Source: Lentisphaerae bacterium WC36 | GTDB lineage: Bacteria; Verrucomicrobiota; Lentisphaeria; Victivallales; SZUA-371 | Reading direction: 5' to 3' | Assembly (NCBI GenBank): GCA_020683205.1 | Contig: CP085689.1 | Span: 2,162,230 to 2,226,229, forward strand | DNA length: 64,000 bases | Shown here: positions 34,862-58,229 of the stretch, piece by piece | Numbering within the stretch: position 1 is the stretch's first letter | Layout of the letters: every line of letters starts with the position of its first letter | Program-made: the position numbers and the translations under genes | Notes under the pieces: model-generated | What the model saw: only the letters and a program-made list of their open reading frames with translations | What the model was told of the DNA's origin: nothing | Database searches by the model: none

Positions 34862-34906
34862 CATTAAAAACAGATAATCTACGAACTTAAATAGCTCGTA
34901 GATTAT
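34862..34906 (-). terminator. Terminator hairpin downstream of glnA (ataatctacga / tcgtagattat followed by a T-run on the minus strand)
   Basis: 11-bp inverted repeat at 34874-34906; the minus-strand 3' flank is TCTGTTTTTAATGG. Confidence 0.45.
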
Positions 34907-34951
34907 TGTATTTAATTTTTTTATGCTTTATTATTAGCAATAAATTACAAT

Positions 34952-37096: not shown

Positions 37097-37175
37097 TGTA
37101 AAATTTACTCCATTTAAAAATAATTTTTAACTTTGTTAAGTTATCTTCTTGTTATATAGTTTTGTTATTTGACTT

Positions 37176-37209
37176 AAAAAAACATTGAGAAGCGTCAATT
37201 TTTCTCAAT
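37176..37209 (-). terminator. Rho-independent terminator after gltD (attgagaa / ttctcaat stem plus a U7 run on the minus strand)
   Basis: 8-bp stem with the A7 run at 37176-37182 on the plus strand; a second 10-bp hairpin (ccgtcaaaat…attttgacgg) lies at 37233-37270. Confidence 0.5.
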
Positions 37210-37316
37210 TAAATAAATATTTATTATCGAACCGTCAAAATTTTATAAAAAAGTTATGCCATTTTGACGGCTCTAAATAAACACTTACATTTTTGTAACT
37301 ATTTATTTAATGTGAT

Positions 37317-38744
37317 CTATTTTAAATAGTTATCAACGTCTATAGCCATATCTTTACCAGCTTTAATCGCTCTAACTACTAATGATGCGCCTGAAACAAT
37401 ATCACCCGCTGCAAAAACTTTTTCAGCACTTGTCATACCGTTTTCATTAACCACAATATTACCACGCGGGTCTAAGTTTAAACCCAAATCATCAATTGAG
37501 CCAACTTTCTCAGGACCAACGAATCCCATTGCTAAAAGAACTAAATCAGCTTTTAGCTGGAATTCACTTCCTTCAACCTCTGTGAAGCTAACTGGACGAC
37601 CATTTTCGATTTTCCATTCAACTTTAGCACAGTTTAATGCAGTAACATGGCCTTCATCATTTGTCACAACTTCTTTTGTTAATACATCCCACATACGTTC
37701 ACAACCTTCTTTATGGCTGCTTGAAGTACGTAGCATATAAGGCCATTCTGGCCAAGGAGTTGACGCATCACGTGTTTCTGGAGGACATGGCATAATCTCA
37801 ATTTGAGTAACGCTTTTTGCTCCTTGACGATTAGATGTACCAACACAGTCAGAACCAGTATCACCACCACCAATAACAACGATATTTTTATCTATAGCTA
37901 AAAGCTCATCGCCTGCAACTTTTTCACCACTCACGCGACAATTTTGTTGTGTCAAGAAATCCATTGCATACTCAACACCTTTAGCATTGCGACCAACTAC
38001 GTTTTCTGGTAAACCACGTGGAGCACGAGCGCCATATGTTAAGCAAACTGCATCAAAATCTGCTAGAATATCAGCAATTTTTGTATCAACACCAACATTA
38101 ACGCCAAATTTGAACGTAACGCCTTCTTCAGTCATTAAATCAACACGACGTTGAACGATATTTTTATCTAATTTAAAATCTGGAATACCATAACGTAATA
38201 AACCACCAGCATAATTAGCACGCTCAAAAACTGTTACATTATGACCCATTTTATTTAAATCATCAGCAACCGCCATACCAGCAGGCCCTGCACCGATTAC
38301 AGCAATTTTCTTATCAGAACGCTCTTTTGGAGGTTGTGGCTTAATCCAACCTTCTTCAAAACCTTTTTCAACTAAGAATTTTTCAATCTGACGAATTGTT
38401 ACAGCCTCTCCATCAATGCCTGATGTACAAGATGCCTCACAAAGAGCTGGGCAAATTCTACCAGTAAATTCTGGGAAATTACTTGTATCAAGAAGCAATT
38501 CTAATGCTTCTTGATATTTTCCTTGACTTGCTAACTCATTCCACTCAGGAATCACATTAGATAATGGACAACCTAAACCATGACAAAATGGAATACCACA
38601 GTCCATACATCTTGATGATTGGCTTTTGATCTCATCTTCAGATAAAAACTTCTCAACTTCTTTATAATCTTTGACCCTTTCATCTTTATTTCTGTAACCA
38701 GGATCAACTCTATCTATTTCTAAAAAACCTCTTGGATTACTCAT
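37317..38744 (-). CDS. gltD: Glutamate synthase small (NADPH) subunit
   Basis: Cys clusters CMDCGIPFCH…C; FAD/NAD Rossmann motifs AVIGAGPAGMA and VVIGGGDTGSDC; 475 aa. Confidence 0.85.
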   Translation of the reverse strand: MSNPRGFLEIDRVDPGYRNKDERVKDYKEVEKFLSEDEIKSQSSRCMDCGIPFCHGLGCPLSNVIPEWNELASQGKYQEALELLLDTSNFPEFTGRICPALCEASCTSGIDGEAVTIRQIEKFLVEKGFEEGWIKPQPPKERSDKKIAVIGAGPAGMAVADDLNKMGHNVTVFERANYAGGLLRYGIPDFKLDKNIVQRRVDLMTEEGVTFKFGVNVGVDTKIADILADFDAVCLTYGARAPRGLPENVVGRNAKGVEYAMDFLTQQNCRVSGEKVAGDELLAIDKNIVVIGGGDTGSDCVGTSNRQGAKSVTQIEIMPCPPETRDASTPWPEWPYMLRTSSSHKEGCERMWDVLTKEVVTNDEGHVTALNCAKVEWKIENGRPVSFTEVEGSEFQLKADLVLLAMGFVGPEKVGSIDDLGLNLDPRGNIVVNENGMTSAEKVFAAGDIVSGASLVVRAIKAGKDMAIDVDNYLK

Positions 38745-38760
38745 TTATCTCACCTGTATG

Positions 38761-41700
38761 TTAGTCGTTGATAACTTCACGCTTTACTTCAGCGTCTTCT
38801 TTTGACATTTTTCCTAAAACTTTACGATATTCAGTTGGGAAAACTTTTACAAATTTATGTAAATTTTCGCTCCAGTTATCTAGAATACTTTTAGCTTTTG
38901 GACTTTCTGTATACTCGAAATGTTTCTCAATCATGCCTTTTAATAATGCTTCATCTTCTGCGCTCACCACAGGCTCTAAGTCAATCATTTCTAAGTTACA
39001 TTTTAAGTCAAAGTCACCTTTCTCATCTAGGATATAAGCAAATCCAGCACTCATTCCAGCACCGAAGTTCACACCAGTGTCACCTAGACAAACTACAATA
39101 CCACCAGTCATATATTCACAGCAATGATCTCCAGCACCCTCAATAACAGTTTTTGCACCACTGTTACGGATTGCGAAACGTTCACCAACTTGACCATTAA
39201 CATATAACTCACCGCTTGTTGCGCCATATAATAATACGTTACCAGCTAAAACGTTATCTTCAGGAGTGAAATCACTAACGCGTGGAGGACGGATACTAAT
39301 AATACCACCACTTAAACCTTTACCAACGTAATCATTACCCTCACCTTCTAGACGGAACGTGATACCTTTCTTCAAGAACGTACCGAAACTTTGTCCCGCA
39401 CAACCTGTAAATGTGAAATCAATTGTATGATCTGGTAAACCGGCTAAACCATGAGCTTTAACAACTGCATTTGATAACATTGGTCCAGCAGTACGGTTTA
39501 AGTTACAGATATCAACTGTTTTCTTTGTTGGAACGCTTGCGTCAGATAAAGTTTCCGCAGCTTCTTTAATTAGCAATTGGTCATATGCTTTATCAATGCC
39601 GTGATCTTGAGCTACGCTTTGTTTTACTGGTAATGAATCATACTCAGTAGGACGAGCAAAAATAGCACTGAAATCTAAGTTTTTAGTCTTCCAGAAGCCA
39701 ATTGCGTCATTCATTTCCAATAGGTCAGTTCGACCTACAGCTTCATCAATCGAACGTAAACCAAGGCTTGCTAAGTATTCACGAACCTCTTCAGCTACAA
39801 AGTAGAAGAAGTTGATTAAATGCTCAGGTTTTCCTGGGAAACGACTACGGCACTCTGGATCTTGAGTCGCTACACCTACAGGACATGTATTACTGTGGCA
39901 TTGACGCATCATTAAGCAACCAATCATTACTAGAGCAGTTGTACCAAAACCGAATTCTTCAGCACCAAGTAAAGCACCGATAATCACATCACGACCAGTT
40001 TTCATTTGACCGTCAACTTGGACTCGGATACGATCACGAAGTTTATTTAATACTAATGTTTGTTGAGTTTCAGCTAAACCTAATTCCCAAGGCAAACCAG
40101 CATGTTTAATAGATGTCATTGGAGATGCACCAGTACCGCCATCGTGACCTGAAATCAATACCATGTCACTATGAGCTTTAGATACACCAGCCGCGACTGT
40201 ACCAACACCAACTTCTGATACTAACTTAACGCTAATACGAGCTTGTGGATTCGAGTTCTTCAAGTCATAAATCAACTGAGCTAAGTCCTCAATAGAATAA
40301 ATATCATGATGTGGAGGTGGTGAAATTAATGTTACACCTGGTACCGAGTTACGAACTTTAGCGATGAATTCATCAACTTTAAATCCTGGTAACTGACCAC
40401 CTTCGCCTGGTTTTGCGCCTTGAGATACTTTAATTTGTAATTCTTTAGCATGACTTAAATAATCAATTGTTACACCAAAACGCCCACTTGCAATCTGTTT
40501 AATTGCACTACATTTATCATCACCGTTTGGCATTGGAGTAAAACGAACAGGATCTTCACCACCCTCACCACTGTTACTCATACCACCAATACGGTTCATA
40601 GCGATTGCCATAGTTTCGTGTGCTTCTTTTGATAATGAACCAAGAGACATTGCACCTGTTACGAAACGTTTTACAATCTCATCAGCAGACTCAACTTCAT
40701 CAATTGAAATTGGAGTTGCGTTTTTAAATTTAAACAATCCACGCAGAGTACAAAGGTTTTTCTCTTGATTATTGATTGTTTCAGCATATTCTTTATATGC
40801 TTTTTTATCGTTATTACGAACTGCATATTGAACTTTTGTAATGTTCTCTGGAGTCCATAAATGTTTCTCACCATTGTTACGGTAACGATATACACCACCT
40901 TCACTTAAGATAGATGATTTATCAGTTGCCGCAGCTTCAACACGCATTGTTGCTTCTTTAGCGATTTCATCTAAACCAATACCAGCAACACGGCTAGCAG
41001 TGTTTGTGAAATAATTATCAATTACTGCTTTATTTAAACCAACAGCTTCGAAAACTTGCGCGCCACGGTAACTACGTAATGTAGCTATACCCATTTTAGA
41101 CATAATTTTCATTAAGCCTTTACCTGTAGCTTTGATATAATTTTCAATAGCTTTCACTGTATCAACGCCGGCTTTCAATGCTCTTTTGTCAGCTAGATCA
41201 GCAATTGTTTCTAACGCTAAGTATGGGTTAATTGCAGTTGCACCATAACCTAATAATAATGCATAATGCATAATTTCACGAGCTTCACCAGTTTCAACGA
41301 CTAAACCTGCACTTGTACGAATACCTTCGTTCGTTAGGAAGTTGTTAACAGCAGCAACTGCTAATAATGATGGAATCGGCGCTTCGTTAGCAGCTAAATT
41401 ACGGTCTGAAAGAATAATTACGCTGTTACCATCAGCAATCGCTGCCTTTGCCGCTTCACAAACATCTTCTAATGCAGCTTTTAATGAAGAACCTTCACCA
41501 TCAGCTGCAAAACCAATCTTAATTGTTTGTGATTGGAATGTATCAATTTTAGCCTTTTGCAGACGACATAAGTCATCATTAGTTAAAATTGGTTGTTTCA
41601 TTTTTAATAAATGAGCATTGCATGGAGTTTCTTCAAGTATATTGCTGTGGTTTCCAATAAAAGTAGTTAAACTCATCACTAACGACTCACGAATTGGATC

Positions 41701-43308
41701 AATCGCAGGATTTGTAACCTGGGCAAATAATTGTTTGAAGTATGCAAATAATAATTGTGGCTTTTCAGATAAAACTGCTAATGCCGCATCATTACCCATT
41801 GAACCAGTCGGCTCCATGCCATTTTCACTCATAGGCTTAATTACAACATTAACGTCTTCACGACTGTAACCAAACATTTTTTGACGTTTTAATAAATCAG
41901 CTTCTGCTTTTGGAGTAGCATTTTCATTATTATATAAACCGCGTAATTCAATTTTGTTTTCTTGAACCCAACGACGATATGGTTGACTACGAGCAATTCT
42001 GCTCTTTAACTCTGTATCGAAAACAACACGGTCATTATTAATATCAACAAACATCATCTGCCCTGGCTTAATACGACCACGCTTTGCAATGTTTACATCT
42101 TCAATATCAATAACTCCAGCCTCTGAAGCCATGAAAATTTTATTATCTTTAGTGATTGTATAACGAGCTGGACGTAAACCATTACGGTCTAACATTGCAC
42201 CAATGCCACGACCATCACTAAATGCAACAGCAGCAGGACCATCCCATGGTTCCATGATACCAGCATGGTATTCGTAGAAACCTCTTAGATCATGCCCCAT
42301 GTAATATTTCTCTCCCCAAGCTTGAGGGATTAACATCATCGCTGAATGCGTCATGCTACGACCACTCTTTGAGAATAACTCTAAAGCATTATCCAAACAT
42401 GCACTATCACTTTGTCCTTGTTTAATAACAGGAATAATTTTCTTAATATCTTCACCATATAATTCACTAGCAAATGACGTTTCACGTGCGCGCATGTGAT
42501 TATAGTTACCACGTAATGTATTAATCTCACCATTATGTGCTAAGTAGCGGAATGGTTGAGCTAATGGCCACGTTGGGAAGGTATTTGTAGAGAAACGTTG
42601 GTGAACAACTGCGATTGCAGATTCCATATCTACATCATTTAAGTCGTGGAAGAATTTTGTAACTTGAGGAGCTAACAATAATCCTTTATAAACAACTGTT
42701 AATGATGAAAAACTACAAAAATAGAAATCATCACCGTCTTGCTCATTAGCAACAGCAGTGTTTTCAATATCACGTCTTAATACATATAATTCACGTTCGA
42801 AATTATCGGCATTTGTGAATTCTTTAGTACTTTCAACAAAACATTGCATAATCACTGGCATAGATTCTTTTGCTAAGCTACCAACATAATTGGTATCAAC
42901 TGGAACAGCTCTCCATCCCAATAACTTAAGGTTATTCTCAACAATTTTATCTTCGATTAATTTTGTTAACTCTGTACGTGCACCATCTTCTTGTGGCAAG
43001 AAAATCATTGCTACACCATATTTACCAGCTTCAGGTAATGTGATGTTGATCTCTTTACATGCTTTTTGGAAGAATTTATCTGGAACCTGCATTAAAATAC
43101 CAGCACCGTCACCAGTTTCTGGGTCGCATCCTACAGCACCACGGTGCTCAATACGTTCTAAAATTGTAATTCCGTCACGAATAATTTGATGGCTTTTACT
43201 TCCGTCAATGTTTGCAGCGAAGCCAACACCACAAGCATCGTGCTCAAATTGACTACTGTATAGTCCTTGAGTCTCTGGGTAAACATTTTTAAATTTACGT
43301 TTGTTCAT
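38761..43308 (-). CDS. gltB: Glutamate synthase large subunit
   Basis: N-terminal Cys1 amidotransferase (DACGVGF); FMN and 3Fe-4S domains; 1515 aa. Confidence 0.9.
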   Translation of the reverse strand: MNKRKFKNVYPETQGLYSSQFEHDACGVGFAANIDGSKSHQIIRDGITILERIEHRGAVGCDPETGDGAGILMQVPDKFFQKACKEINITLPEAGKYGVAMIFLPQEDGARTELTKLIEDKIVENNLKLLGWRAVPVDTNYVGSLAKESMPVIMQCFVESTKEFTNADNFERELYVLRRDIENTAVANEQDGDDFYFCSFSSLTVVYKGLLLAPQVTKFFHDLNDVDMESAIAVVHQRFSTNTFPTWPLAQPFRYLAHNGEINTLRGNYNHMRARETSFASELYGEDIKKIIPVIKQGQSDSACLDNALELFSKSGRSMTHSAMMLIPQAWGEKYYMGHDLRGFYEYHAGIMEPWDGPAAVAFSDGRGIGAMLDRNGLRPARYTITKDNKIFMASEAGVIDIEDVNIAKRGRIKPGQMMFVDINNDRVVFDTELKSRIARSQPYRRWVQENKIELRGLYNNENATPKAEADLLKRQKMFGYSREDVNVVIKPMSENGMEPTGSMGNDAALAVLSEKPQLLFAYFKQLFAQVTNPAIDPIRESLVMSLTTFIGNHSNILEETPCNAHLLKMKQPILTNDDLCRLQKAKIDTFQSQTIKIGFAADGEGSSLKAALEDVCEAAKAAIADGNSVIILSDRNLAANEAPIPSLLAVAAVNNFLTNEGIRTSAGLVVETGEAREIMHYALLLGYGATAINPYLALETIADLADKRALKAGVDTVKAIENYIKATGKGLMKIMSKMGIATLRSYRGAQVFEAVGLNKAVIDNYFTNTASRVAGIGLDEIAKEATMRVEAAATDKSSILSEGGVYRYRNNGEKHLWTPENITKVQYAVRNNDKKAYKEYAETINNQEKNLCTLRGLFKFKNATPISIDEVESADEIVKRFVTGAMSLGSLSKEAHETMAIAMNRIGGMSNSGEGGEDPVRFTPMPNGDDKCSAIKQIASGRFGVTIDYLSHAKELQIKVSQGAKPGEGGQLPGFKVDEFIAKVRNSVPGVTLISPPPHHDIYSIEDLAQLIYDLKNSNPQARISVKLVSEVGVGTVAAGVSKAHSDMVLISGHDGGTGASPMTSIKHAGLPWELGLAETQQTLVLNKLRDRIRVQVDGQMKTGRDVIIGALLGAEEFGFGTTALVMIGCLMMRQCHSNTCPVGVATQDPECRSRFPGKPEHLINFFYFVAEEVREYLASLGLRSIDEAVGRTDLLEMNDAIGFWKTKNLDFSAIFARPTEYDSLPVKQSVAQDHGIDKAYDQLLIKEAAETLSDASVPTKKTVDICNLNRTAGPMLSNAVVKAHGLAGLPDHTIDFTFTGCAGQSFGTFLKKGITFRLEGEGNDYVGKGLSGGIISIRPPRVSDFTPEDNVLAGNVLLYGATSGELYVNGQVGERFAIRNSGAKTVIEGAGDHCCEYMTGGIVVCLGDTGVNFGAGMSAGFAYILDEKGDFDLKCNLEMIDLEPVVSAEDEALLKGMIEKHFEYTESPKAKSILDNWSENLHKFVKVFPTEYRKVLGKMSKEDAEVKREVIND

Positions 43309-43394
43309 TTTACTTGACCTGACTTTCTTTATCTTAATTTTTACTTAAAGTTCTTAATTTATTATATTTTATTTCAAAATTCAGCATTTTAATT

Positions 43395-43410
43395 AGCAAA
43401 TATCATGCCA
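43395..43410 (-). promoter_or_regulatory. Sigma-54 (-24/-12) promoter TGGCAT-N5-TTGCT directed at gltB
   Basis: The plus-strand agcaaatatcatgcca is the reverse complement of TGGCATGATATTTGCT; GG and GC have the correct 10-nt spacing; about 85 nt upstream of the gltB ATG. Confidence 0.55.
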
Positions 43411-43729
43411 ACTTCTATATTATAGTTATAATAGATTAATTTTCAACTTGTTAGGTTTTTTTAAAAATCCCATTACTTAATTATAACATTACAAAAATGT
43501 CATAAATTTAAGACTTTATTACATTTTTGTATTTTTTTTAAAAACTTTTGTTTTTTTTCATATTATCCCTAGATTTTTTAAAAAAAAGACCTATGTGTTT
43601 AGTATAGCATTTATTTTTTTTAGAAATTATTAACTTTAATTTTTTAGTAATTCCAAACTAAACAAAAATTTTAAAATAGCGTAATTTTTGAAAAAAACTA
43701 AAAATTTTTAATAAAAATGGTAAATTAAA

Positions 43730-45268
43730 GTGAAAAACATTGAAAAAAACCTTGAATTACGAGTTTTAAATAAAATCAGCACTACAATTGTTCGCGAGCG
43801 TAATGTGGGTCAAATGTTCAAGGATACTTTTAATATTCTTTCTCATGAGCTGAATATTGAGCGTGGGACACTTACCTTAAAGCGTGGAAATGAGTTATTT
43901 ATTGAAGCATCTCATGGGTTAAGCAGTGAAGAGCGTCGCCGAGGAAAATATGCTCTTGGAGAAGGAGTTACGGGTCAGGTTGCAATGCGCGGCGAAGCTA
44001 TTACAATCCCTAATATTAGTCAAGAACCGGCATTTTTATACCGAACTGGAGTCAAACGTGTTGCGCATGGCGCTTTTATTTGTGTACCAATTAAAAGCGA
44101 AGGCGATGTTATTGGGACACTTAGTATAGAATTACTTGAAGATGACGCTGATTATCTTGAACAATTAGAATTTCTTCTTTCAACAGTTGCGAATATTATG
44201 GCAAATGCTGCGGCTGCTATTCTAATGGAAATTGAAGAACATGAAAAACTTGTAGAAGAAAATCAACGTTTAAAAATTGAACTAAATCATCATTTTATTC
44301 CCGAAAATATGATTGGTACAGGTAGCCAAATGCGTGAAATTTTCGTGCAAGTGGGGCAAGTTGCAGAATCACCAGCGACAGTATTAATTACAGGAGAATC
44401 TGGTACTGGTAAAGAATTAATTGCCCGTGCAATTCACAATGCTAGTCCTAGAAAAAATAATCCATTCATAGCAGTAAACTGCGGAGCTTTGCCAGAAAAT
44501 TTAGTTGAAAGTGAACTTTTCGGACATGAAAAGGGTGCATTTACTGGCGCAGTTGAACGTCGAAAGGGGCGCTGTGAACTTTCTGATGGTGGAACGCTAT
44601 TTTTAGATGAAATTGGTGATATTTCAATCCCAGTCCAGGTAAAATTATTACGTTTTTTACAAGAAAAAACGTTTCAACGAGTTGGTGGATCGATTGACAT
44701 TAATGTTGATGTTAGAATTATTGCTGCAACAAGCCGAAATTTAGAAGATTACATTGCTAATGATAGATTTCGAGAGGACCTTTATTACCGCTTAAATGTA
44801 TTTCCGATTCACCTACCAAATTTACGCAAACGCCGTACCGATATTATTCCATTGGCAGAACATTTCCTTGAAAAATTCAACAAAATGTATGGCAAAAATA
44901 TCAAACGAATTTCTACACCAGCAATTAATATGCTTTTATCATATCACTGGCCAGGGAACGTGCGTGAACTTGAAAACTGTATAGAGCGAGTTGTTTTAAC
45001 AACTCAAGATGAGGTTATTAGAGGTTATAATATGCCTCCATCACTGCAAACAGCACAAGCAACAAACACGACTATTATTCCAGAAGATAATAGCGGAGTT
45101 TCGCTTGAAACAATGATGGAGCTGTACGAAAAAGAGTTAATTATTGATGCATTGAAAAATCACCGTGGTAATGTGGCTGCGACGTCAAGATTCTTAAAAA
45201 GCACTCCGCGAATCATACACTACAAGATTAAACAATTAAAAATTGATCCATCAAAATTTAAACTTTAG
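43730..45268 (+). CDS. Sigma-54-dependent transcriptional activator with an N-terminal GAF domain (NifA-like bacterial enhancer-binding protein)
   Basis: GAF-like N-terminus; AAA+ domain with GESGTGKE Walker A and the GAFTGA motif; C-terminal HTH (…[25 protein letters not shown]); 512 aa. Confidence 0.8.
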
Positions 45269-45534
45269 ATTAAATTTTGATGACATATAAGATGTAATAA
45301 CTCTTTCAAATTAAGAATTATTGCATCTTTTTTTATTTTTTATTGTAGATTTTATCTTCTAAAAAAGTCACAATTTTGTCATATTTATTTTTTACATCCT
45401 ACTAGTTACCGTTAATATAGTAAATTACTCTGCCTTAAAATGAAATTATGCCAGAAAACTCAAATATTTTAATAAATGAGATTTTCTGACATAAAATTTT
45501 ACTTCATTATTTTTTTATATTCATCTACAGATAG

Positions 45535-48195
45535 TTAATGCGTGTGTTCCCCCAATTCAGGATGAGAATGTGTTCCCTCATAAACTCCACCCATACCAAT
45601 TGTTGAATAGATATAACTACAATGGTAACATTTATATTTTGTTACACCGTCTTCTTCTGGACAACCACATGTTAAAGAATTAGGGAAAAAATCTCCACAA
45701 GCTGCACATTCAGATCCATATAAATAAATACATGAACTAATATTAGGATTTGAATCTCCTGACCCTGAATCTCCTGACCCTGAATCTCCTGACCCTGAAT
45801 CTCCTGACCCTGAATCTCCTGAACCTGAATCTCCTGAACCTGAATCTCCTGAACCTGAATCTCCTGAACCTGAATCTCCTGAACCTGAATCTCCTGACCC
45901 TGAATCTCCTGAGCCTGAATCTCCTGAGCCTGAATCTCCTGAACCTGAATCTCCTGAACCTGAATCTCCTGAACCTCCTGATCCGTTAGAATCATGCGAA
46001 TGTTCACCTAATTCAGGGTGTGAGTGTGTTCCCTCATAAGCTCCACCCATGCCAGTTGTTATGTAAATATAGCTACAGTGATAACATTTATACTTTGTTA
46101 CACCATCTTCTTCTGGACAACCACATGTCAAAGAATTAGGGAAAAAATCCCCACAAGCTGCACATTCAGATCCATGCAAATAAACACATTGCACTGGGTC
46201 AGAAATTACCACCTTTAACACTCCCTTGTATAACTCAAGCATATCTGGCATCCATGCTGAAATTGCTTTTGTATATATATAATAAACTCCTGGCGTATTA
46301 AAAGTAACAAATTTTCTTGTAACTTCTTTTTTTTGTTCTATTAAGGTATTTTCAACAAGAGCTGGTCCATAAAATTCGAAATGAACAAATTCTAAAGTTG
46401 AATACCCCTTCCCTATCAGTTTATATGTTGTATTTGTAGTTCCATAAAAAATTTCGCCATTATCGGCAGCTATTCTGCTAGGCATTCTAGATGTAGCAAA
46501 TATCTCACCTGTTGTCGCATCTGTGATAGAAGCCTCAAGGAAACACTCTTCATATTCGTCAGCGACAGTAATTTTTCTATAAATATATACTGGTTCACCT
46601 TCTGGTCCAGTTCTTTCTAATTGCCCTCGAATCACATATGTTCCTGGTAAACTAATAGCAAATCGTTTAGCACCTGATAAAACTGTTTTTACAAGAGTTC
46701 CATCACCTTCAACCGTGATTAATGACGCAACATTATCTTTTATGCTTTCTTGACACGATAAAAATTCTGAAAGCTCAACCATCTCAAAAGCATTAACATC
46801 ATAGGTGACACTACTTTTTTTACAATTTTCTAAATTATAATATATAGGACCATCCCCTGGGTTTGACGATGACTCTGAAATTACAACCTTTAACACTCCC
46901 TTGTATAACTCAAGCATATCTGGTAGCCATGCTGAAATTGCTTTTGTATATATATAATAAACTCCTGGAGTCTTAAAAGTAACGAATTTTCTTGTAACTT
47001 CTTTTTTTTGTTCTATTAAAGTATTTTCAACAAGAGCTGGTCCATAAAATTCGAAATGAACAAATTCTAAAGTTGAATAACCTTTCCCTATCAATTTATA
47101 TGTTGTATTTGTAGTTCCATAAAAAATTTCGCCATTATCAGCAGCTATTCTGCTAGGCATTTTAGATGTAGCAAACACCTCACCTGTTGTCGCATCTGCA
47201 ATAGAAGCCTCAAGGTAGCATCCTTCATATTCGTCAGCCACAGTAATTTTTCTGTAAATATATACTGGTTCACCTTCTGGTCCAGTTCTTTCTAATTCAC
47301 CTCGAATTACATAAGTTCCTGGTAAACTAATAGCAAATCGTTTAGCCCCAGATGCAACAGTTTGTACAAGAGTACCATCACCTTCAATCGTGATTAATGA
47401 TGCAACATTATCTTTTATGCTTTCTTGACACGATAAAAATTCTAAAAGAACAACCATTTCATAGGCATTAACATCATAGGTAGCGTTATCATTTTTTGAT
47501 TCTTCTAAGTCATAATATACAGAACTTGTAACCGAGCCCCCAGAACCTGAATCTCCTGAACCTGAATCTCCTGAACCTGAATCTCCTGAACCTGAATCTC
47601 CTGAACCTGAATCTCCTGAACCTGAATCTCCTGAACCTGAATCTCCTGAACCTGAATCTCCTGAACCTGAATCTCCTGAACCTGAATCTCCTGAACCTGA
47701 ATCTCCTGAACCTGAATCTCCTGAACCTGAATCTCCTGAACCTGAATCTCCTGAACCTGAATCTCCTGAACCTGAATCTCCTGAACCTGAATCTCCTGAG
47801 CCTGAATCTCCTGAGCCTGAATCTCCTGAGCCTGAATCTCCTGAGCCTGAATCTCCTGAGCCTGAATCACCTGAGCCTGAATCTCCTGAGCCTTCGTTCT
47901 CATGAGTATGTTCTCCTAATTCAGGATGTGAATGTGACCCCTCGTACAATCCCCCCATATATGTGTTATATTCATAACTACAATGATAACAACGGTAGAT
48001 GGTCGACCCATCTTCCTCTGGACAACCGCATGTTGGAGAATAGTACACTGACTTTGCACAAGCGGCACAATCTGATCTAAATAAATAAACACATGAACTA
48101 CTTGGAACAGCTTCTGTTTCACCTTTTACTAATGGCGTTGTTATCATAGAGGTTAATAACAACATCATCGAAAATACAAATTTTTTAAATTTCAT
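45535..48195 (-). CDS. Large secreted modular repeat protein with three Cys7/His-rich modules, two (SGD)n linkers and a duplicated ~210-aa domain
   Basis: Signal peptide. Architecture is A1–(GDSGS)~23–B1–B2–A2–(GDSGS)~16–A3, where A = C-x7-C-x2-C…CGCPEEDG…YxCYHCSY…HSHPELGEH[TS]H. Confidence 0.6.
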   Translation of the reverse strand: MKFKKFVFSMMLLLTSMITTPLVKGETEAVPSSSCVYLFRSDCAACAKSVYYSPTCGCPEEDGSTIYRCYHCSYEYNTYMGGLYEGSHSHPELGEHTHENEGSGDSGSGDSGSGDSGSGDSGSGDSGSGDSGSGDSGSGDSGSGDSGSGDSGSGDSGSGDSGSGDSGSGDSGSGDSGSGDSGSGDSGSGDSGSGDSGSGDSGSGDSGSGDSGSGDSGSGGSVTSSVYYDLEESKNDNATYDVNAYEMVVLLEFLSCQESIKDNVASLITIEGDGTLVQTVASGAKRFAISLPGTYVIRGELERTGPEGEPVYIYRKITVADEYEGCYLEASIADATTGEVFATSKMPSRIAADNGEIFYGTTNTTYKLIGKGYSTLEFVHFEFYGPALVENTLIEQKKEVTRKFVTFKTPGVYYIYTKAISAWLPDMLELYKGVLKVVISESSSNPGDGPIYYNLENCKKSSVTYDVNAFEMVELSEFLSCQESIKDNVASLITVEGDGTLVKTVLSGAKRFAISLPGTYVIRGQLERTGPEGEPVYIYRKITVADEYEECFLEASITDATTGEIFATSRMPSRIAADNGEIFYGTTNTTYKLIGKGYSTLEFVHFEFYGPALVENTLIEQKKEVTRKFVTFNTPGVYYIYTKAISAWMPDMLELYKGVLKVVISDPVQCVYLHGSECAACGDFFPNSLTCGCPEEDGVTKYKCYHCSYIYITTGMGGAYEGTHSHPELGEHSHDSNGSGGSGDSGSGDSGSGDSGSGDSGSGDSGSGDSGSGDSGSGDSGSGDSGSGDSGSGDSGSGDSGSGDSGSGDSGSGDSNPNISSCIYLYGSECAACGDFFPNSLTCGCPEEDGVTKYKCYHCSYIYSTIGMGGVYEGTHSHPELGEHTH
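45750..45985. repeat. Perfect 15-bp tandem repeat (cctgaatctcctgaN), about 16 units, coding for (SGDSG)n
   Basis: Seen directly; units differ only at wobble positions. Confidence 0.85.
46200..47540. repeat. Tandem duplication of about 680 bp, two copies at about 95% identity, inside the repeat-protein gene
   Basis: The same strings (e.g. acctttaacactcccttgtataactcaagcatatctgg) occur at 46209 and 46887; the encoded 210-aa domains are nearly identical. Confidence 0.8.
47545..47893. repeat. Second block of the same 15-bp tandem repeat, about 23 units
   Basis: Seen directly. Confidence 0.85.
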
Positions 48196-48487
48196 TTTTC
48201 TTCCTTTTTGTTTTGTTTAAAATTGACTCTAACAAATTGATTAAAAATGATTTAAAAAATAATAAAAACCAATATAAAAAAAACACCACTAAACACCTAC
48301 ATATCAACCTTTAAAGATAATTTAAACACTAAAAATCAATCATTTAGACTACTAATCAAACAATATCATACTAATTTATAATTGCAAACTGTTTTATTAT
48401 ACTAATGTTTTAATTTAATTCAAAAAAAAGGTTATAGCTGAAACTTCAGCTATAACCTTTTATAAATACTGCTAGAAAAGAAACTAA

Positions 48488-50884
48488 TTATTCTTTATTA
48501 ATTATAAAATTTTGATTACTACCATAAATTTTAAAGTCTTTAATCCGTCCAGTTGCTTTATTTGCTCGTGGCAAATACAACAATTTACCAACATCTTGCT
48601 TTTTACCCAAATCAATTACAATCTGATGTGGATGAGTTGGAGTATTACCACCTTGCCATTTTGTATGCCAATAAGTCACTGGCTGATTATCAATAATATT
48701 ATCAGCTCCGCCTGACTCCCCAACTTTTTCCTCACTATCGGCATAAATAACCTTCCAGCCATTGCGATCTATTTCAGCACCATCCTTATCAAACATATGA
48801 ACTTCAGCAATCGTCGTATACTTATCGTTTTTACTGAATGAACTCAATGCCTCAATACAAATATAGCGACACTTCGTCCCTTTATTAAAAGCAACTGTTT
48901 GCCCAACTGCTGAATTTTTAAACTGCCCTTGAGCAACAATATCACTTTGCTGTAATTTTAATTCTTGCCCAGCCTTGCGTAAATATTTGATTCCAGAATC
49001 ATTCTTCAATTCATAGACCATATTTTTTAAACCTTGAACTTTATTAATATTTTTTGGCTCAAGGTCCATAACAATAATCTCATTATTACCACGCTTTAAC
49101 CAGCATCCTGGTAAATAAAGAGCCTGTTGAGGTCCAATACTCCAGAATCTACCCAAGTTGTGACCATTAACCCAAACCATACCTTTTCCCCATTTTCTCA
49201 TATCAAGAAATGTATCACCAATTTCATTTAACGTGAAAATTCCTTTATAAAAGTATGGCATGGCGTTTTGTGCTTTTGTAACTTTTGAAAACTTTAATTC
49301 ATCGATATTATCGAGGGGAAATCCAATCATTTGCCAATTTTTAAGTTCTTTATTCGCTAATAAAACTTTTCCAGGAATACCTTTGCGATCAGTTACCATG
49401 GTGTGAGAGAAATTAATATGCCCCATATTTTCAACCAAAATATCAAGCGTGGCATTGCCCGCAGGAATATCAACTTCAATGCTTTTTTGATTATTGCCAT
49501 GACGTCGATCCAATGTCCCAACTTTTTTGCCATTGACAATAATAATTGCACGATCACTTAACGTTGAAAAAGTTAATTTGCCTTTAACAGGTCCAGTTAT
49601 ATTAGTTTTATATAAAACAAATCCTTGATTAACATCAATTGCTTCCATATAAGTTGGCACTTCAACATTAACTGGCGAGCTCGCTAATTGACTAAATGAA
49701 GCCATTTGACTCATCCCAAATGTTGGAATAGTAATTTTCTTAATTGGTTTAGGCATTGGCGGTAAAACAGTTCCCTCTGGAAGATATTTTTTGATAACAT
49801 TTTGGAAATCATAAAATTTCTTTGCTGGTGTACCGTCTTCATGTAAGTTTGCTGAATAATCATAACTAGTAGTATCAACGCTATATTTTCCTGACCAATT
49901 TGCTCCAGAACTAAAACCAAAATTTGTTCCACCAATGAACATATAATTATTAAATGAAATATTATTTTTTAGCATCCACTCAATCATTACAGCTTTTTCT
50001 TTACCATTAGTACTGTGATGTTGAGCGCCCCAATGGTCAAACCAGCCAGTCCAAAATTCTCCAGCCATTCGTGGCAATTTGGGGCAATATTTATCAAAAA
50101 CTTTAAATGCATTTTGTGGATTATTACCAAAATTCATGCTTGGAGTAACCCCATCAATGTGACCATTTTCAATATTTGCTTTTCTTGGCCAGTCACACCT
50201 TATCAATAAACTATCGGTAAAACCAGCTTCAACGTAAAGCTGTTTCATTTGATTTAAATATTCTTTATCCTTTCCAAAAACTGCATATTCATTTTCTACC
50301 TGAGTCATAATAATTGGACCACCACGATCAATTTGCAAGTCGCGAAGTTGTTCGCCAACGGCATTTAAATAGCGTTTTGTAGCTGCCATAAATTTTGGAT
50401 CTTTACTTCTAATTACCATCTTTGGATCTTTCAATAACCACGCTGGCATACCACCTAAATCCCATTCAGAGCAAATATAAGGGCCAGGACGTAAAATTAC
50501 CCATAAACCTTCATCTTGGGCAATTCGACAAAATTCAGCAATGTCCAATTCTCCAGTAAAATCAAATTGACCTGGTTGTTTTTCATGAGCATTCCAAAAA
50601 ACGTAAGTACTAATAGTGTTCAGACCCATCGCACGTGCTTTTTTCATGCGATCACGCCAATATGCTCTAGGAACACGAGTATAGTGCAATGATCCAGACA
50701 TTATTAAAGCTGGCTTATTGTTAAAAACAAAATTTCTTTTTTCAATGCCAAAAGTTGGTTGCTTTTCGCCTTGAGAGTTAGGAATTGGTGCTAAATTTAC
50801 AGTTTGAGCGCTACTAACTAAAGCTCCTAAACTCACAGCAGCGAACAATAAATTTTTAAATTTTTTCTTCTTATTTTGTTTCAC
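48488..50884 (-). CDS. Secreted GH35-family beta-galactosidase with a C-terminal F5/8 type C (discoidin) domain
   Basis: Signal peptide; GH35 core (GLNTISTYVFWNAHE, PGPYICSEWDLGGMPAWL, catalytic ENEY); a discoidin-like tail; 798 aa. Confidence 0.8.
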   Translation of the reverse strand: MKQNKKKKFKNLLFAAVSLGALVSSAQTVNLAPIPNSQGEKQPTFGIEKRNFVFNNKPALIMSGSLHYTRVPRAYWRDRMKKARAMGLNTISTYVFWNAHEKQPGQFDFTGELDIAEFCRIAQDEGLWVILRPGPYICSEWDLGGMPAWLLKDPKMVIRSKDPKFMAATKRYLNAVGEQLRDLQIDRGGPIIMTQVENEYAVFGKDKEYLNQMKQLYVEAGFTDSLLIRCDWPRKANIENGHIDGVTPSMNFGNNPQNAFKVFDKYCPKLPRMAGEFWTGWFDHWGAQHHSTNGKEKAVMIEWMLKNNISFNNYMFIGGTNFGFSSGANWSGKYSVDTTSYDYSANLHEDGTPAKKFYDFQNVIKKYLPEGTVLPPMPKPIKKITIPTFGMSQMASFSQLASSPVNVEVPTYMEAIDVNQGFVLYKTNITGPVKGKLTFSTLSDRAIIIVNGKKVGTLDRRHGNNQKSIEVDIPAGNATLDILVENMGHINFSHTMVTDRKGIPGKVLLANKELKNWQMIGFPLDNIDELKFSKVTKAQNAMPYFYKGIFTLNEIGDTFLDMRKWGKGMVWVNGHNLGRFWSIGPQQALYLPGCWLKRGNNEIIVMDLEPKNINKVQGLKNMVYELKNDSGIKYLRKAGQELKLQQSDIVAQGQFKNSAVGQTVAFNKGTKCRYICIEALSSFSKNDKYTTIAEVHMFDKDGAEIDRNGWKVIYADSEEKVGESGGADNIIDNQPVTYWHTKWQGGNTPTHPHQIVIDLGKKQDVGKLLYLPRANKATGRIKDFKIYGSNQNFIINKE

Positions 50885-54611: not shown

Positions 54612-55499
54612 TTAGTAATTACTGCATGTTTTACCTTTTGATTTAAAAGTAGGATTACTACATTGAATACACCATGCTTCAGAATTAAAGTCTGCATAGC
54701 TTTCTTTCCACTCCTCTTCAGTACTTTCATAAATTGTTCCACTTCTTATTGGATAATCAGGATGATAATCACCTGTACCATCATCATCTATATCGGGATT
54801 GTGATATTGGTCAGCATGTGTAATAGAACCATCTGGATTTACATAACCATAATCAAACTTAATACTATCTTCATCCATACCTTCCTTATCCCAATTACTA
54901 AAATCAGCTTTGCCTGTTTTAGGGTCAAACGTTACATCAGGATTTATACCATCTTTGCCTTTATCATTCCAAAAGTGAACTGAAAACATTTTTGGACAAA
55001 CCTTGTCTTTGCATTTATTTTTCATTTCTCCCTGAGCATCTGTTGCTTGTTGTTTTGTTTTATAGCAATTATCATGATTTTCAATAACTCCAGTATTAGC
55101 ACAAACAACTCCGACACATCCCCTATTTATTTGTTTTCTCACCCAAGGTGCATATATAATATTCCCAGGATTTTCTTTAAATTTAGGGTGTGCATCAAAA
55201 TATTTTTTTAAATAATCTTCCAACGACATTTCTGTTCTTAATCCTAAAATATCATAGAAAACAATTGGATTATTGTACGAATTCCCATAAATGTTTTCTC
55301 CACCTTTTTCTTGGATTGGGTCACGTTTTAACCATTTTCCTGTGCTTGGGTTGTAATAACGGTAATTGTAATAGATTAATCCTGTTTCTTTTTCAGCATA
55401 TTCACTACTGAATTTGAACACGTTTTCAACATTCTCATCTGTTTTTGCTAATTGTCCAAATGGGCTATAATCGTATTTATTAGCGATTTCTCCTGTTGT
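54612..55499 (-). CDS. Rhs-family C-terminal orphan cassette 1; homology begins right after a stop at about 55499, with the first ATG at 55421
   Basis: …LTTGEIANKYDYSPFGQLAKTDENVENVFKFSSEYAEKETGLIYYNYRYYNPSTGKWLKRDPIQEKGGENIYG…DILGL followed by a unique ~200-aa Cys-rich C-terminal domain. Confidence 0.65.
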   Translation of the reverse strand, partial: TTGEIANKYDYSPFGQLAKTDENVENVFKFSSEYAEKETGLIYYNYRYYNPSTGKWLKRDPIQEKGGENIYGNSYNNPIVFYDILGLRTEMSLEDYLKKYFDAHPKFKENPGNIIYAPWVRKQINRGCVGVVCANTGVIENHDNCYKTKQQATDAQGEMKNKCKDKVCPKMFSVHFWNDKGKDGINPDVTFDPKTGKADFSNWDKEGMDEDSIKFDYGYVNPDGSITHADQYHNPDIDDDGTGDYHPDYPIRSGTIYESTEEEWKESYADFNSEAWCIQCSNPTFKSKGKTCSNY

Positions 55500-55565
55500 T
55501 AATTATCTTATCCTTGTTAATCACATCCTAAATATTTAAACTTCTTTTATACTTTTTTTACAAAA

Positions 55566-55594
55566 AACATCGATCAAAAATTTTAATCGATGTT
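55566..55594 (-). terminator. Hairpin (aacatcgat…atcgatgtt) followed by a T-run on the minus strand, downstream of the immunity gene 55620..55835
   Basis: 9-bp perfect inverted repeat; the minus-strand 3' flank is TTTTTGTAAAAAAA. Confidence 0.4.
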
Positions 55595-55619
55595 AATTTG
55601 TTTTCTCACTTTTGATAAT

Positions 55620-55835
55620 TTAAGTTCTTATTTTGGGCAAAAAAACTGTAAATATATATATAACATAAACGACTATTAGTAGAAAAATAAGACATATTTT
55701 TTTAAATAGTTTTTTTTCTTTTATAAGATTTTTTAAAATAATAATAAAACCATATAAATAAAAAATAAATTTAATAATTTCTAATATTTTCATAATTATC
55801 CATTTTTTAATAATATAGTAAATAACATTAAGCAC
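55620..55835 (-). CDS. 71-aa two-TM membrane protein, candidate immunity protein for cassette 2
   Basis: Begins 3 nt after the toxin-2 stop; entirely hydrophobic helices. Confidence 0.5.
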   Translation of the reverse strand: MLNVIYYIIKKWIIMKILEIIKFIFYLYGFIIILKNLIKEKKLFKKICLIFLLIVVYVIYIFTVFLPKIRT

Positions 55836-55838
55836 ATA

Positions 55839-56588
55839 CTATTCTCTTTTACTTAGACATTTATCCATGCAATTTTGATGATTCTCTCTAATATTATTTT
55901 GCTCTATTATAAATAACGCTGATACCAATGCAGCACAAGGTAAAGCAAAAGGTCCTCCTCCTGCAAGGCAGACTGCTACCTTAAGTAAATAAGCTGAATT
56001 TGAAATACCTAGAGCAACAATTAAAGCCGCTTCACAACAATTAGCACACTTTTTCTTGCAGTGCTTACCGCAACCTTTAGCAAACCAATCTACGCCTCTT
56101 AAAAGTAATTCTGCTCCAAGACCAATTATTGTAAACTTCGCTACAAAGTCTTGCCCTAAATGGTCTTTGTTTGATATAGGTTGATTATTAACAAAACCGT
56201 ATAAATTAAATCCACCGTCTTCTTCGATTGGGTCGCGGGATAGCCATTTTCCTGTGCTTGGATTATAATAACGGTAATTGTAATAAATTAAGCCACTTTT
56301 TTCGTCATGGAATTCAGAACTGAATTTGAAAACATTCGCCACGGTTTCGTTATCTAACGATAACTGACCGAATGGCGAATAATCATAACGATTCGCAACC
56401 GAACCTGAACTCATATCAATCAACTGCGTAATATTTTTATTGCCATCTGCGATGTAATTAAATACCACTCCATCTTTTTCTAATGCCAATAAATTATCAC
56501 CTAACCATACAAATCTATTACTTATTAACGAACTATTCAACTCATTAACGGTTTTTATTAGCTTATATTTGTTAAGAAAACACACCAT
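55839..56588 (-). CDS. Rhs C-terminal orphan cassette 2 with a small hydrophobic, Gly/Ala/Cys-rich (membrane-targeting?) toxin domain
   Basis: N-terminus retains …FVWLGDNLLALEKDGVVFNYIADGNKNITQLIDMSSGSVANRYDYSPFGQL…YYNYRYYNPSTGKWLSRDPIEEDGG…DHLGQ; the C-terminus is …AGGGPFALPCAALVSALFII…. Confidence 0.65.
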   Translation of the reverse strand: MVCFLNKYKLIKTVNELNSSLISNRFVWLGDNLLALEKDGVVFNYIADGNKNITQLIDMSSGSVANRYDYSPFGQLSLDNETVANVFKFSSEFHDEKSGLIYYNYRYYNPSTGKWLSRDPIEEDGGFNLYGFVNNQPISNKDHLGQDFVAKFTIIGLGAELLLRGVDWFAKGCGKHCKKKCANCCEAALIVALGISNSAYLLKVAVCLAGGGPFALPCAALVSALFIIEQNNIRENHQNCMDKCLSKRE

Positions 56589-56655
56589 AATTTGTCAAAT
56601 TATGGTGTTTAAAAATTCTTCAATTGATCTAATTTACAAGTTAAAGAGTTAAAAT

Positions 56656-57135
56656 TTATTTTTTTAATGGCTTGTCAAACGCTGGAATAACATATTCATT
56701 CCACATTTTTTTAGTAATCCAAGTCTTACCGCCTTCTTTATATTTTAATTTATCTAGCTCAATTCCAGGAATTTTTATTTCATGAACCCCACTTTTGTCG
56801 ACAATTAGAATTTTCCCTAATGCGTCAATTTTTTTGCCATCAAAATATACTTGATTCTTATAGCTAGAAAAATATGTTAATCCTTTACTAGTTATGAGCT
56901 TTTTATCAAATTTTATATAACTTAAATTTGTCCAATATACACCTTTTTTTATGAACATTATGTATTGTACTTTATCCTTGTAACAAATTGCCTCCCAACT
57001 ATATGAGTAATTAGTTTTCTCATCAAAGTAATTACTGTTTGAAATAACACTAAAATCGTCCATAGAAGGCTTACAGCTAGTAAAAATAAATATAGTATAA
57101 AATAAACTAAACATTAATACAGTTTTTTTCATCAA
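56656..57135 (-). CDS. Lipoprotein (159 aa), candidate immunity protein for cassette 3
   Basis: ATG at 57132 with AGGAGA; lipobox FTSC; starts 6 nt after the toxin-3 stop. Confidence 0.5.
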   Translation of the reverse strand: MMKKTVLMFSLFYTIFIFTSCKPSMDDFSVISNSNYFDEKTNYSYSWEAICYKDKVQYIMFIKKGVYWTNLSYIKFDKKLITSKGLTYFSSYKNQVYFDGKKIDALGKILIVDKSGVHEIKIPGIELDKLKYKEGGKTWITKKMWNEYVIPAFDKPLKK

Positions 57136-57141
57136 TATCTC

Positions 57142-58137
57142 CTATTTTTTACATGAACATATTAAAACAAAAGTTCGGTGAACTTTCCATACCGCCCCTG
57201 CATTATGACTAATACTTCTTTCATTAGAAACCCCTCCTACATCACCGTTACCAATATTTACCCCATCAGCATTTGTGATAGCTCCACCAACTTTACCAAT
57301 TAGGTTTAAACTAATAGTTACGGTATGTTCTTTTTCTCCTTGATTGTCAATTGTTGGAGTGTCCATTAAAACTTTAACATAGAGGGGACCACTACTTGTA
57401 TTTTTTGCTGAACCTTTATCTGTTGACCCAGTCATTCTTATTTGTCCTGTATCAGAATCACATTTGAAGGAAAGTTTAATTCTTGTTGACACATCATATG
57501 TTTTCCATCCTGTAAATGTCCGCATGAAAGAATTTGCATACCTAAATCGCCCTCTTATAACAGCACTAACTGAATTACTTGAAGCAGTAGCCATTCCTCC
57601 AAATTGAACTCTAGATTTGTATTTATACAAAAGACCTGGCTGACCTGGAGCAAAAGAATGCTGTCTCAACCAGAACGAATAATCTTGCACTTCTTCGTCA
57701 ATGTGCAATTTTCCAGGTTCTCCCTCTGGCGCATCCCAGCTCCATTTTAATCCTAAACTATCTATATTTTTTATAGTATCATTGCCTACAAAACTATATA
57801 AATTGTCTCCGCCTTTTTCTTCGATTGGGTCTCTGCTGAGCCATTTGCCGTTTACAGGATTATAATATCTATAATTGTAATAAATTAAGCCTGTTTCTTT
57901 TTCAGCGTATTCGCTTGAAAATTTGAATGGATTTTCAACCGTTTCTACGTCCGCAATTAGCTGACCAAAAGGCGAATAATCATAACGATTCGCTATTGAA
58001 CCCGAACTCATATCAATCAACTGAGTGATATTTTTATTGCCATCTGCGATGTAATTAAATGCTACGCCATCTTTTTCTAATGCCAATAAATTATCACCTA
58101 ACCATACAAATCTATCACTTATTGAGCTACCATTCAA
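57142..58137 (-). CDS. Rhs C-terminal orphan cassette 3 (TTG start; frame open from a TAATAA at about 58160)
   Basis: Conserved FVWLGDNLLALEKDG…YYNYRYYNPVNGKWLSRDPIEEKGG…DSLGL followed by a unique ~200-aa C-terminal domain. Confidence 0.65.
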   Translation of the reverse strand: MNGSSISDRFVWLGDNLLALEKDGVAFNYIADGNKNITQLIDMSSGSIANRYDYSPFGQLIADVETVENPFKFSSEYAEKETGLIYYNYRYYNPVNGKWLSRDPIEEKGGDNLYSFVGNDTIKNIDSLGLKWSWDAPEGEPGKLHIDEEVQDYSFWLRQHSFAPGQPGLLYKYKSRVQFGGMATASSNSVSAVIRGRFRYANSFMRTFTGWKTYDVSTRIKLSFKCDSDTGQIRMTGSTDKGSAKNTSSGPLYVKVLMDTPTIDNQGEKEHTVTISLNLIGKVGGAITNADGVNIGNGDVGGVSNERSISHNAGAVWKVHRTFVLICSCKK

Positions 58138-58229
58138 CTCATTGCTATTTTTTTATTAGCTTATATTTGTTATAAAAACACCACAACTTTTTGCATTATG
58201 GTGTTTTATTTACTATCCTTAGACCAAGT

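Follow-up and report, generated by a model that had tools for sequence, protein, structure and literature searches.

The stretch of DNA considered here (the window) comprises 64,000 nucleotides of the genome of Lentisphaerae bacterium WC36 (contig CP085689.1, positions 2,162,230 to 2,226,229), and the gene under study encodes a protein of 886 amino acids on its reverse strand. As judged from its sequence, this may be an exported, tethered, metal-chelating or ligand-binding protein, a reading to which we give a probability of about 0.4. The gene is real and lineage-restricted, and its product is a modular, "beads-on-a-string" protein in which a signal peptide is followed by module A1, spacer 1, domains B1 and B2, module A2, spacer 2 and module A3. 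This architecture of three A modules, two linkers and two B domains in an exported protein had been proposed in an initial annotation of the DNA, and it was borne out by the open reading frame (ORF), the motif and Tandem Repeats Finder (TRF). The parts of the gene are as follows.

45535 to 48195, reverse strand: coding sequence of the 886-residue protein, an ORF with an ATG start and the C-terminus ...HPELGEHTH before the stop codon
48121 to 48195, reverse strand: Sec-type signal peptide, residues 1-25, MKFKKFVFSMMLLLTSMITTPLVKG followed by ETE, assigned by inspection without a predictor
47902 to 48093, reverse strand: module A1, residues 35-98, from the motif and internal alignment
47542 to 47886, reverse strand: spacer 1, (GDSGS)23, residues 104-218, 23 units of 15 bp, from TRF and unit alignment
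46876 to 47517, reverse strand: domain B1, residues 227-440, a predicted tandem pair of Ig-like beta-sandwiches
46201 to 46842, reverse strand: domain B2, residues 452-665, 91.4% identical to B1 in nucleotides and offset from it by 675 bp
45994 to 46188, reverse strand: module A2, residues 670-734, from the motif and internal alignment
45751 to 45975, reverse strand: spacer 2, (GSGDS)15, 15 units of 15 bp, from TRF and unit alignment
45538 to 45732, reverse strand: module A3, residues 822-886, from the motif and internal alignment, its last His being the C-terminal residue of the protein

All three copies of module A carry the cysteine pattern C-x7-C-x2-C-x9-C-x-CPEEDG-x5-C-x2-C, followed by SY.Y...MGG.YEG.HSHPELGEH[TS]H. 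The seven invariant Cys and the His-x-His...His cluster of the initial annotation were thus recovered in each copy; its spacings of x11-13 and x6 had to be corrected to x9 and x5, and the regular expression built on them found no match. When the copies were aligned over the 65-residue module, 44 columns proved invariant, among them 7 of 7 Cys and 5 of 5 His, and these columns cover H42, the HxH...HxH cluster and CPEEDG. Each module contains seven Cys, five His and six Glu in 65 residues, as well as six to nine Tyr, and ends in HxH-x5-HxH, directly after which comes a spacer or the stop codon.

Selection on the modules was assessed by the Nei-Gojobori method, with a Fisher test, from the nonsynonymous (dN) and synonymous (dS) divergence between the internal paralogues.

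A2 and A3: dS 0.62, dN 0.047, dN/dS 0.075, Fisher p 1e-8
A1 and A2: dS > 1, dN 0.285, dN/dS 0.16, Fisher p 3e-5
A1 and A3: dS > 1, dN 0.288, dN/dS 0.28
B1 and B2 (91.4% nucleotide identity, 642 nt): dS 0.24, dN 0.053, dN/dS 0.22, Fisher p 7e-8

The A modules and the B domains are under purifying selection. For module A this follows from the ratio of 0.075 between A2 and A3 and from the retention of seven Cys and five His in A1 at saturated synonymous sites, and the module is beyond chance because its three copies keep 44 columns while synonymous sites have diverged or become saturated. The dS values also indicate that the duplications of A and B are not fresh, and the description of the 210-residue domain as "freshly duplicated" does not agree with a dS of 0.24 and a dN/dS of 0.22 for B1 and B2.

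According to the reading favoured here, the three A modules would be small metal-chelating knobs, most likely holding Zn(II) or another thiophilic or borderline ion (Ni, Cu, Co, Fe2+). One scheme would combine Cys4 or Cys3His zinc-knuckle sites (CAAC ... CGC ... CYHC) with a four-His/Glu site. The knobs would hang from disordered, polyanionic tethers of about 115 and 75 residues around an Ig-like core, and in the sulfidic habitat of the host, where free metals are scarce, the protein could act periplasmically or extracellularly to capture, buffer or present metal ions; alternatively, the metals would stabilise small binding heads. Such a role of module A is suggested by the density of ligands (12 Cys/His plus six Glu in 65 residues), by the knuckle spacing of CAAC, CGC and CYHC, which would bring together seven Cys and one His as eight ligands, and by the position of the terminal HxH-x5-HxH immediately before a spacer or the stop codon. 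In addition, the sole sub-threshold similarities of the module, none of them significant, are to knuckles of the zinc-finger type. WC36 is a strict anaerobe isolated from a cold seep at 1146 m; it was isolated on polysaccharides, is stimulated by them and was grown with cysteine as reductant (PMC11361711). Because the host is strictly anaerobic and cysteine served as reductant, exported thiols need not be oxidised, and since the Cys of domain B are not conserved, the protein does not seem to rely on disulfides in general. Metal binding had been put forward in the initial annotation as plausible, and this appears reasonable in view of seven Cys and five His per 65 residues, dN/dS values of 0.075-0.28 and the strictly anaerobic host.

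Several observations weigh against metal chelation. No homologue of module A of known function was found in any of the databases searched, all of its zinc-finger similarities are non-significant, and no confident structure of it was obtained (predicted local distance difference test, pLDDT, below 50 in both AlphaFold2 (AF2) models). An arrangement of three disulfides with one thiol left free would also suit the odd number of Cys. Metal-related genes are not among the neighbours, which are a GH35 beta-galactosidase gene and a GAF/sigma-54 activator gene, and the 5' untranslated region (UTR) contains no metal riboswitch, no Rfam family reaching its threshold. Moreover, the supplementary files searched as text for the strain's paper (PMC11361711) do not mention the gene, and a 3' fragment of the gene, guessed for use as a query, is not on record in the Logan assemblies.

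The searches for relatives of module A covered proteins, genomes, metagenomes, viruses, family models and structures, none gave a significant match, and the remark in the initial annotation that the module could not be placed therefore stands. An exhaustive phmmer search with B2+A2 as query (1.84 billion representatives of about 15 billion proteins) gave no relative of A, nor did degenerate-pattern scans with B2+A2 and with the A alignment in GTDB genomes, JGI metagenomes and IMG/VR, or tblastn against plasmids and phages. No paralogue of A or B lies elsewhere in the window. A word-indexed search of 5.8 billion clusters returned zero matches for B2+A2 (45991-46875, reverse strand) and zero for the A alignment at E <= 10. 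Nor did it recover the 886-residue source protein, which is a cluster representative there, so that the index is incomplete and its negatives are weak on their own. Neither A nor B matches a family of Pfam or NCBIfam above cut-off, and PHROGs and PADLOC contain nothing for the protein. Sequence searches of the PDB gave only non-significant matches; for A, the lowest E values were 0.44, to a PHD finger, and 0.58, to the proximal-cluster motif of a [NiFe]-hydrogenase small subunit.

Comparison with known metal sites gave analogies rather than memberships. Module A resembles zinc knuckles, zinc ribbons, C2H2 fingers and PHD fingers in that its CxxC, CxC and CxHC knuckles are 9-10 residues apart, and its seven Cys and one His equal the eight ligands of the two-zinc RING and PHD fingers, although the order of the ligands differs from that in RING and PHD. 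It falls below every cut-off of the zinc-finger families (C2H2, PHD, zinc ribbon, IS1-type), the sub-threshold scores being 19 bits against a cut-off of 27 for zf-C2H2_7th_ZNF462 of Pfam and 10.7 against 28 for IS1_IS1595_Zn, and no solved finger matches significantly. Against the bacterial metallothionein SmtA/BmtA, hhalign gave a probability of 0.2%, with an SmtA sequence entered by hand, and Pfam gave no match; unlike the zinc fingers and SmtA/BmtA, which are cytoplasmic or nuclear, A would be Sec-exported. By inspection, A1 and A2 fit motif 1 of the cupins (G-x5-HxH-x3,4-E-x6-G). Cupins, however, combine motif 1 with motif 2 (G-x5-PxG-x2-H-x3-N) within a beta-barrel that has 100 residues or more; in A the spacer or the stop codon follows where motif 2 would be expected, no cupin family of Pfam matches it, and the likeness is at most an analogy of ligand spacing.

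Exported zinc capture by repeated His motifs or His-rich regions is known from the polyhistidine-triad (Pht) proteins, ZinT and ZnuA. The 886-residue protein may be compared with these as an exported protein with several short His clusters (HxH-x5-HxH) for which extracytoplasmic metal capture is plausible. It differs from Pht, ZinT and ZnuA in showing no sequence relationship to them and no match to a His-triad family in Pfam, in having its His cluster fused to a seven-Cys unit, and in that no ABC metal importer is encoded near the gene.

The protein appears from its sequence to be Sec-exported and soluble. Its N-terminus resembles a Sec signal peptide, with a KFKK n-region, a 15-residue hydrophobic core and a V-K-G cleavage site, and two relatives of domain B described below (P0004 and P0005) start with signal peptides too. 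Inspection showed neither a twin arginine nor a lipobox Cys in the signal peptide. There is no LPXTG motif, C-terminal sorting domain or hydrophobic tail, module A3 itself forming the end of the protein, and the term "surface protein" used in the initial annotation is thus not supported. The whole protein is acidic, with an isoelectric point of about 4.3.

Turnover appears to be much more rapid in the spacers than in the A and B modules. TRF found exactly two arrays in the whole window, one at 47543-47893 (period 15, 23.4 copies, 99% matches) and one at 45751-45976 (period 15, 15.1 copies, 98% matches). The count of about 23 GDSGS units for the first linker was confirmed (23 units), and that of about 16 for the second was reduced to 14-15, since spacer 2 contains 14 full units when read in the GDSGS register. 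Variants among the units are confined to third codon positions, as had been stated, and affect Gly codons, apart from a single Ser codon in the final unit of spacer 1; the arrays are 98-99% pure. The variant units are arranged in blocks, and spacer 1 includes 16 consecutive identical units (240 bp) of the sequence GGAGATTCAGGTTCA, the dominant unit of both arrays, which is cyclically permuted in spacer 2. Because the arrays are nearly identical in DNA while the flanking A1 and A2 have a dS above 1, slippage or unequal exchange or conversion is probably ongoing, and the arrays bear the signature of a spacer length set by replication slippage, unequal exchange or conversion still under way. As the unit is 15 bp and thus a multiple of 3, changes would stay in frame and affect length only, with no on/off effect; phase switching calls for a unit that is not a multiple of 3 or for a location in a promoter, and the spacers lie in frame within the coding sequence. 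The slippage or unequal recombination invoked by the initial annotation is reflected in the DNA of the arrays, but the length polymorphism predicted from it is not seen between the two assemblies of the strain, in which repeat numbers are equal (these are the sole assemblies carrying the gene and are possibly not independent); hypervariability on evolutionary timescales is plausible. Taken together, three tempos seem to coexist in one ORF, namely old, selected modules, a domain duplication of intermediate age and rapidly homogenised spacers.

The only family scoring above its cut-off anywhere in the protein is Pentapeptide_2 of Pfam (PF01469; 45.3 bits against 26.4), and this match lies wholly on the (GDSGS)n array (residues 100-138 onward). 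It was treated as compositional; G-D-S-G-S is without Asn, and true repeats read NxGxGNxG. Pfam shows no N-terminal PPE domain, and the host belongs to the Lentisphaerae and not to the actinobacteria. A literature search for GDSGS repeat strings retrieved no papers. Every 15-nt unit contains AGGAGA, a Shine-Dalgarno-like or GGA motif, which gives 38 in-frame copies in the mRNA; these could pause ribosomes or bind CsrA-type proteins. A sub-threshold Rfam match to CsrC on the spacer (E 0.069) is probably compositional. Two spurious antisense ORFs had been listed as repeat artefacts: both are artefacts, and only LNLL... (45750-45989, forward strand) is antisense, whereas the QEIQ... ORFs (45672-46007 and 47505-47903) are alternative frames of the gene's own strand.

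Domain B is, according to a model of moderate confidence, a tandem Ig-like unit, which would give four Ig-like domains per protein. B1 and B2, which repeat with a period of 675 bp, are 91.4% identical over 642 nt and 87% identical in amino acids over a wider segment; the earlier figures for nucleotide identity and period were about 95% and about 680 bp. A single-sequence AF2 model reached a pLDDT of 36.7, and AF2 with six sequences predicted B at pLDDT 55-86 as two consecutive beta-sandwiches, consistent with the seven- to nine-stranded Greek-key sandwich of the E-set, whereas A stayed below a pLDDT of 50. With the B model, Foldseek retrieved filamin Ig pairs, Bacteroides SGBP-B, intimin and S-layer domains from the PDB with E values down to 1.5e-5 and a single-domain TM score of about 0.6. 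No named Ig-like family (Big_1-13, PKD, Filamin, He_PIG and others) matches B in Pfam or NCBIfam even at E <= 10, and a PDB profile search for B found nothing. Apart from a GTY-x-I strand motif, no significant similarity was detected between one half of B and the other (hhalign probability 2.5%), so that an internal duplication within B is not borne out. The predicted fold is generic to extracellular stalks, adhesins and scaffolds and would say little about the ligand.

The exhaustive phmmer search recovered only the protein itself and P0004, a 265-residue protein with 28% identity over B (E 6.6e-10), and a profile search added P0005, the B family thus amounting to three clusters among about 15 billion proteins. 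P0004 and P0005 each consist of a signal peptide and a single B domain, and because B occurs alone in these two metagenomic proteins, it is probably an autonomous exported unit. The positions of Cys in B differ among B1, B2, P0004 and P0005, none being conserved. Both relatives are encoded on short metagenome contigs of 31% GC, next to DUF188, and a peptidase M3 gene also lies beside the B relative on the longer contig L007. These 265-residue secreted single-domain proteins, on the ENA metagenome contigs L005-L008, are the sole relatives of B that were found; the DNA identity between L005 and L007 is about 77%.

In its predicted E-set/filamin-type fold, B is like tandem Ig-like extracellular proteins such as the AgI/II-BspA C-domains, PrgB, invasin/intimin and the Bacteroides surface glycan-binding protein (SGBP) SGBP-B; it differs from the named Ig-like families in matching no Ig-like sequence model, the fold model being of moderate confidence. 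The spacers recall the staphylococcal Sdr/Clf adhesins and further acidic, Ser-rich stalks of low complexity, in which a long, DNA-level tandem forms an acidic, Ser/Asp-rich disordered region between folded modules and for which slippage would be expected to vary the length. Unlike Sdr/Clf, the protein has a GDSGS unit of 15 bp instead of an SD dipeptide, two arrays, no LPXTG anchor and no adjacent glycosyltransferases, and its host is a diderm bacterium of the Planctomycetes-Verrucomicrobia-Chlamydiae (PVC) group. With a GDSGS repeat and a C-terminus ...HPELGEHTH bearing neither LPXTG nor a hydrophobic tail, it is not an SD-repeat member of the microbial surface components recognizing adhesive matrix molecules (MSCRAMMs).

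The chief competing explanation is a role as adhesin or glycan-binding protein. In this view both the Ig-like pairs of B and the aromatic-rich A modules, with disulfides or structural zinc to stabilise them, would bind a polysaccharide or surface, and the spacers would project the heads, as in SD-repeat adhesins or SGBPs. The best structural matches of B, namely Ig domains of bacterial adhesins and SGBP-B, point in this direction, as do the Tyr-rich A modules, the isolation of the host on polysaccharides and its stimulation by them, and the position of the gene immediately downstream of one for a secreted GH35 beta-galactosidase that carries an F5/8-type-C domain. However, Ig-like folds are generic, the GH35 gene is closed off from the target gene by a strong terminator, no anchor, lipobox or sorting signal would attach the protein to the cell, and no family of carbohydrate-binding modules or lectins in Pfam or NCBIfam matches it. 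This explanation also leaves the four invariant His and the Glu at each A end unaccounted for, and we consider it rather unlikely. The protein might instead be a length-variable (contingency-type) envelope antigen, in which selection would act chiefly on rapid change in spacer length, and in B copy number, as a means to escape phages or alter surface properties, with A and B secondary. This would suit the arrays of 23 and 15 units with their 240-bp identical run and a unit shared despite old flanks, the tandem duplication of B at 91% identity and the chronic phages carried by the host. Yet the protein is identical in both assemblies of the strain, a unit that is a multiple of 3 makes on/off switching impossible, and the strong purifying selection on A and B indicates that the modules themselves matter, which makes such an antigen distinctly improbable.

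An exported iron-sulfur or redox protein, with seven Cys ligating clusters as in 7Fe ferredoxins or the proximal cluster of the hydrogenase small subunit, would be in keeping with a set of seven Cys beginning C-x7-C and with the weak likeness of SCVYLHGSECAACG to the [NiFe]-hydrogenase small-subunit motif SVVYLHNAECTGCS (E 0.58). That similarity is non-significant. The marks of ferredoxin-type or Tat-exported redox proteins are a CxxCxxCxxxCP motif or a Fer4 match and a twin-arginine signal; Pfam shows no Fer4 match, and the n-region KFKK of the signal is without RR, as in a Sec-type signal and not a twin-arginine one. Proteins loaded with FeS cofactors are known to be exported via Tat, and because export would be by Sec, FeS clusters are highly unlikely. 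Scarcely more credible is a non-functional or artefactual ORF, be it a repeat assembly error, a decaying gene or the precursor of a multi-core ribosomally synthesised and post-translationally modified peptide (RiPP) or bacteriocin. The gene is an ORFan with no annotated family and repeats are error-prone in assembly, but dN/dS is well below 1 between the internal copies, the frame is intact over 2.6 kb in an AT-rich genome, and the sequence is identical in two assemblies of a strain sequenced with both Illumina and Nanopore. No maturase, radical-SAM or ABC-exporter gene is adjacent and there is no PADLOC or PHROG match; nothing supports the "bacteriocin-like" module of the initial annotation.

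That the gene is real is indicated by an 886-residue ORF in a genome of 32% GC with a ribosome-binding site, a promoter-like site and an upstream terminator, and by the identity of the protein in the WC36 and WC36G assemblies, the genome having been sequenced with Illumina and Nanopore (PMC11361711). It forms a singleton cluster, present only in these two, possibly not independent, assemblies, and is deposited as "hypothetical protein" UDQ96731.1 = WZV05448.1 (locus tags LJT99_09515 / AAEX28_06650); the window sequence has an exact match in chromosome CP151801.1. Downstream of the GH35 beta-galactosidase gene (48488-50884), the order is terminator, promoter-like site and ribosome-binding site of the target gene.

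48426 to 48461, reverse strand: intrinsic terminator of the upstream GH35 beta-galactosidase gene, with a 16-bp stem and a T run
48396 to 48423, reverse strand: Sigma-70-like promoter TTGAAT-16-TATAAT, 10 of 12 consensus positions matching, a consensus match only
48200 to 48205, reverse strand: ribosome-binding site AGGAAG, 4 nt ahead of the ATG

Because the strong terminator closes the GH35 gene, the target gene appears to be its own, seemingly monocistronic, transcription unit. Its 5' UTR folds no better than shuffled sequence (z-score 0.62). The convergent gene downstream encodes the GAF/sigma-54 activator, which more probably serves nitrogen assimilation, since it is divergent from gltB-gltD-GSIII. 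The Logan contigs L003 (SRR23915081) and L004 (SRR17146412), of 1.85 kb each, carry only the activator gene; they span about 43580-45436 of the window, with some 150 nt on either side of that gene, and look like RNA-seq transcript assemblies of this strain, which suggests transcript ends close to 45436, with roughly 100 nt remaining to the stop codon of the target gene.

Elsewhere in the window, a nitrogen-assimilation cluster with no relation to the 886-residue protein occupies 32809-45268 (GATase-domain protein, type III glutamine synthetase, gltD, gltB and the divergent GAF/sigma-54 activator). Six orphan RHS/YD-repeat C-terminal "tip" cassettes form an array on the reverse strand at 54612-63181 (motifs at 55373, 56285, 57882, 59705, 61576 and 62956), each opening with EYAEKETGL[IV]YYNYRYYNP..GKW..RDPI...GL; the tails all differ, one containing DUF4329. 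Small ORFs between the cassettes, including an ankyrin-repeat protein (59942-60763), are probably immunity genes, and the region, with a low GC content of 0.25-0.30, looks like a polymorphic-toxin reservoir.

Secreted modular repeat proteins with Ig-like domains and low-complexity stalks are known; what is new is the orphan Cys7/His5 module. In its boldest form, for which we see only a small chance, the metal reading would make A the founder of a new class of Sec-exported Cys7/His5 metal-binding domains, three tethered copies of which, on polyanionic spacers of slippage-tuned length, would allow a strict anaerobe in sulfidic sediment to scavenge or buffer thiophilic metals (Zn, Ni, Co, Cu) outside the cytoplasm, as a protein "metallophore". 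The internal paralogues allow dN/dS to be estimated without any orthologue and so offer a clean natural experiment. Nothing in the present results overturns current understanding. If A does not bind metal, the protein would be another lineage-specific hypothetical protein. If it does, the module would represent a new metal-binding fold outside the cytoplasm, from a group (the Lentisphaerae) that has been little studied, as well as an uncommon example of an exported protein whose metal sites use reduced thiols, and it would bear on the supply of trace metals to anaerobes where sulfide removes them.

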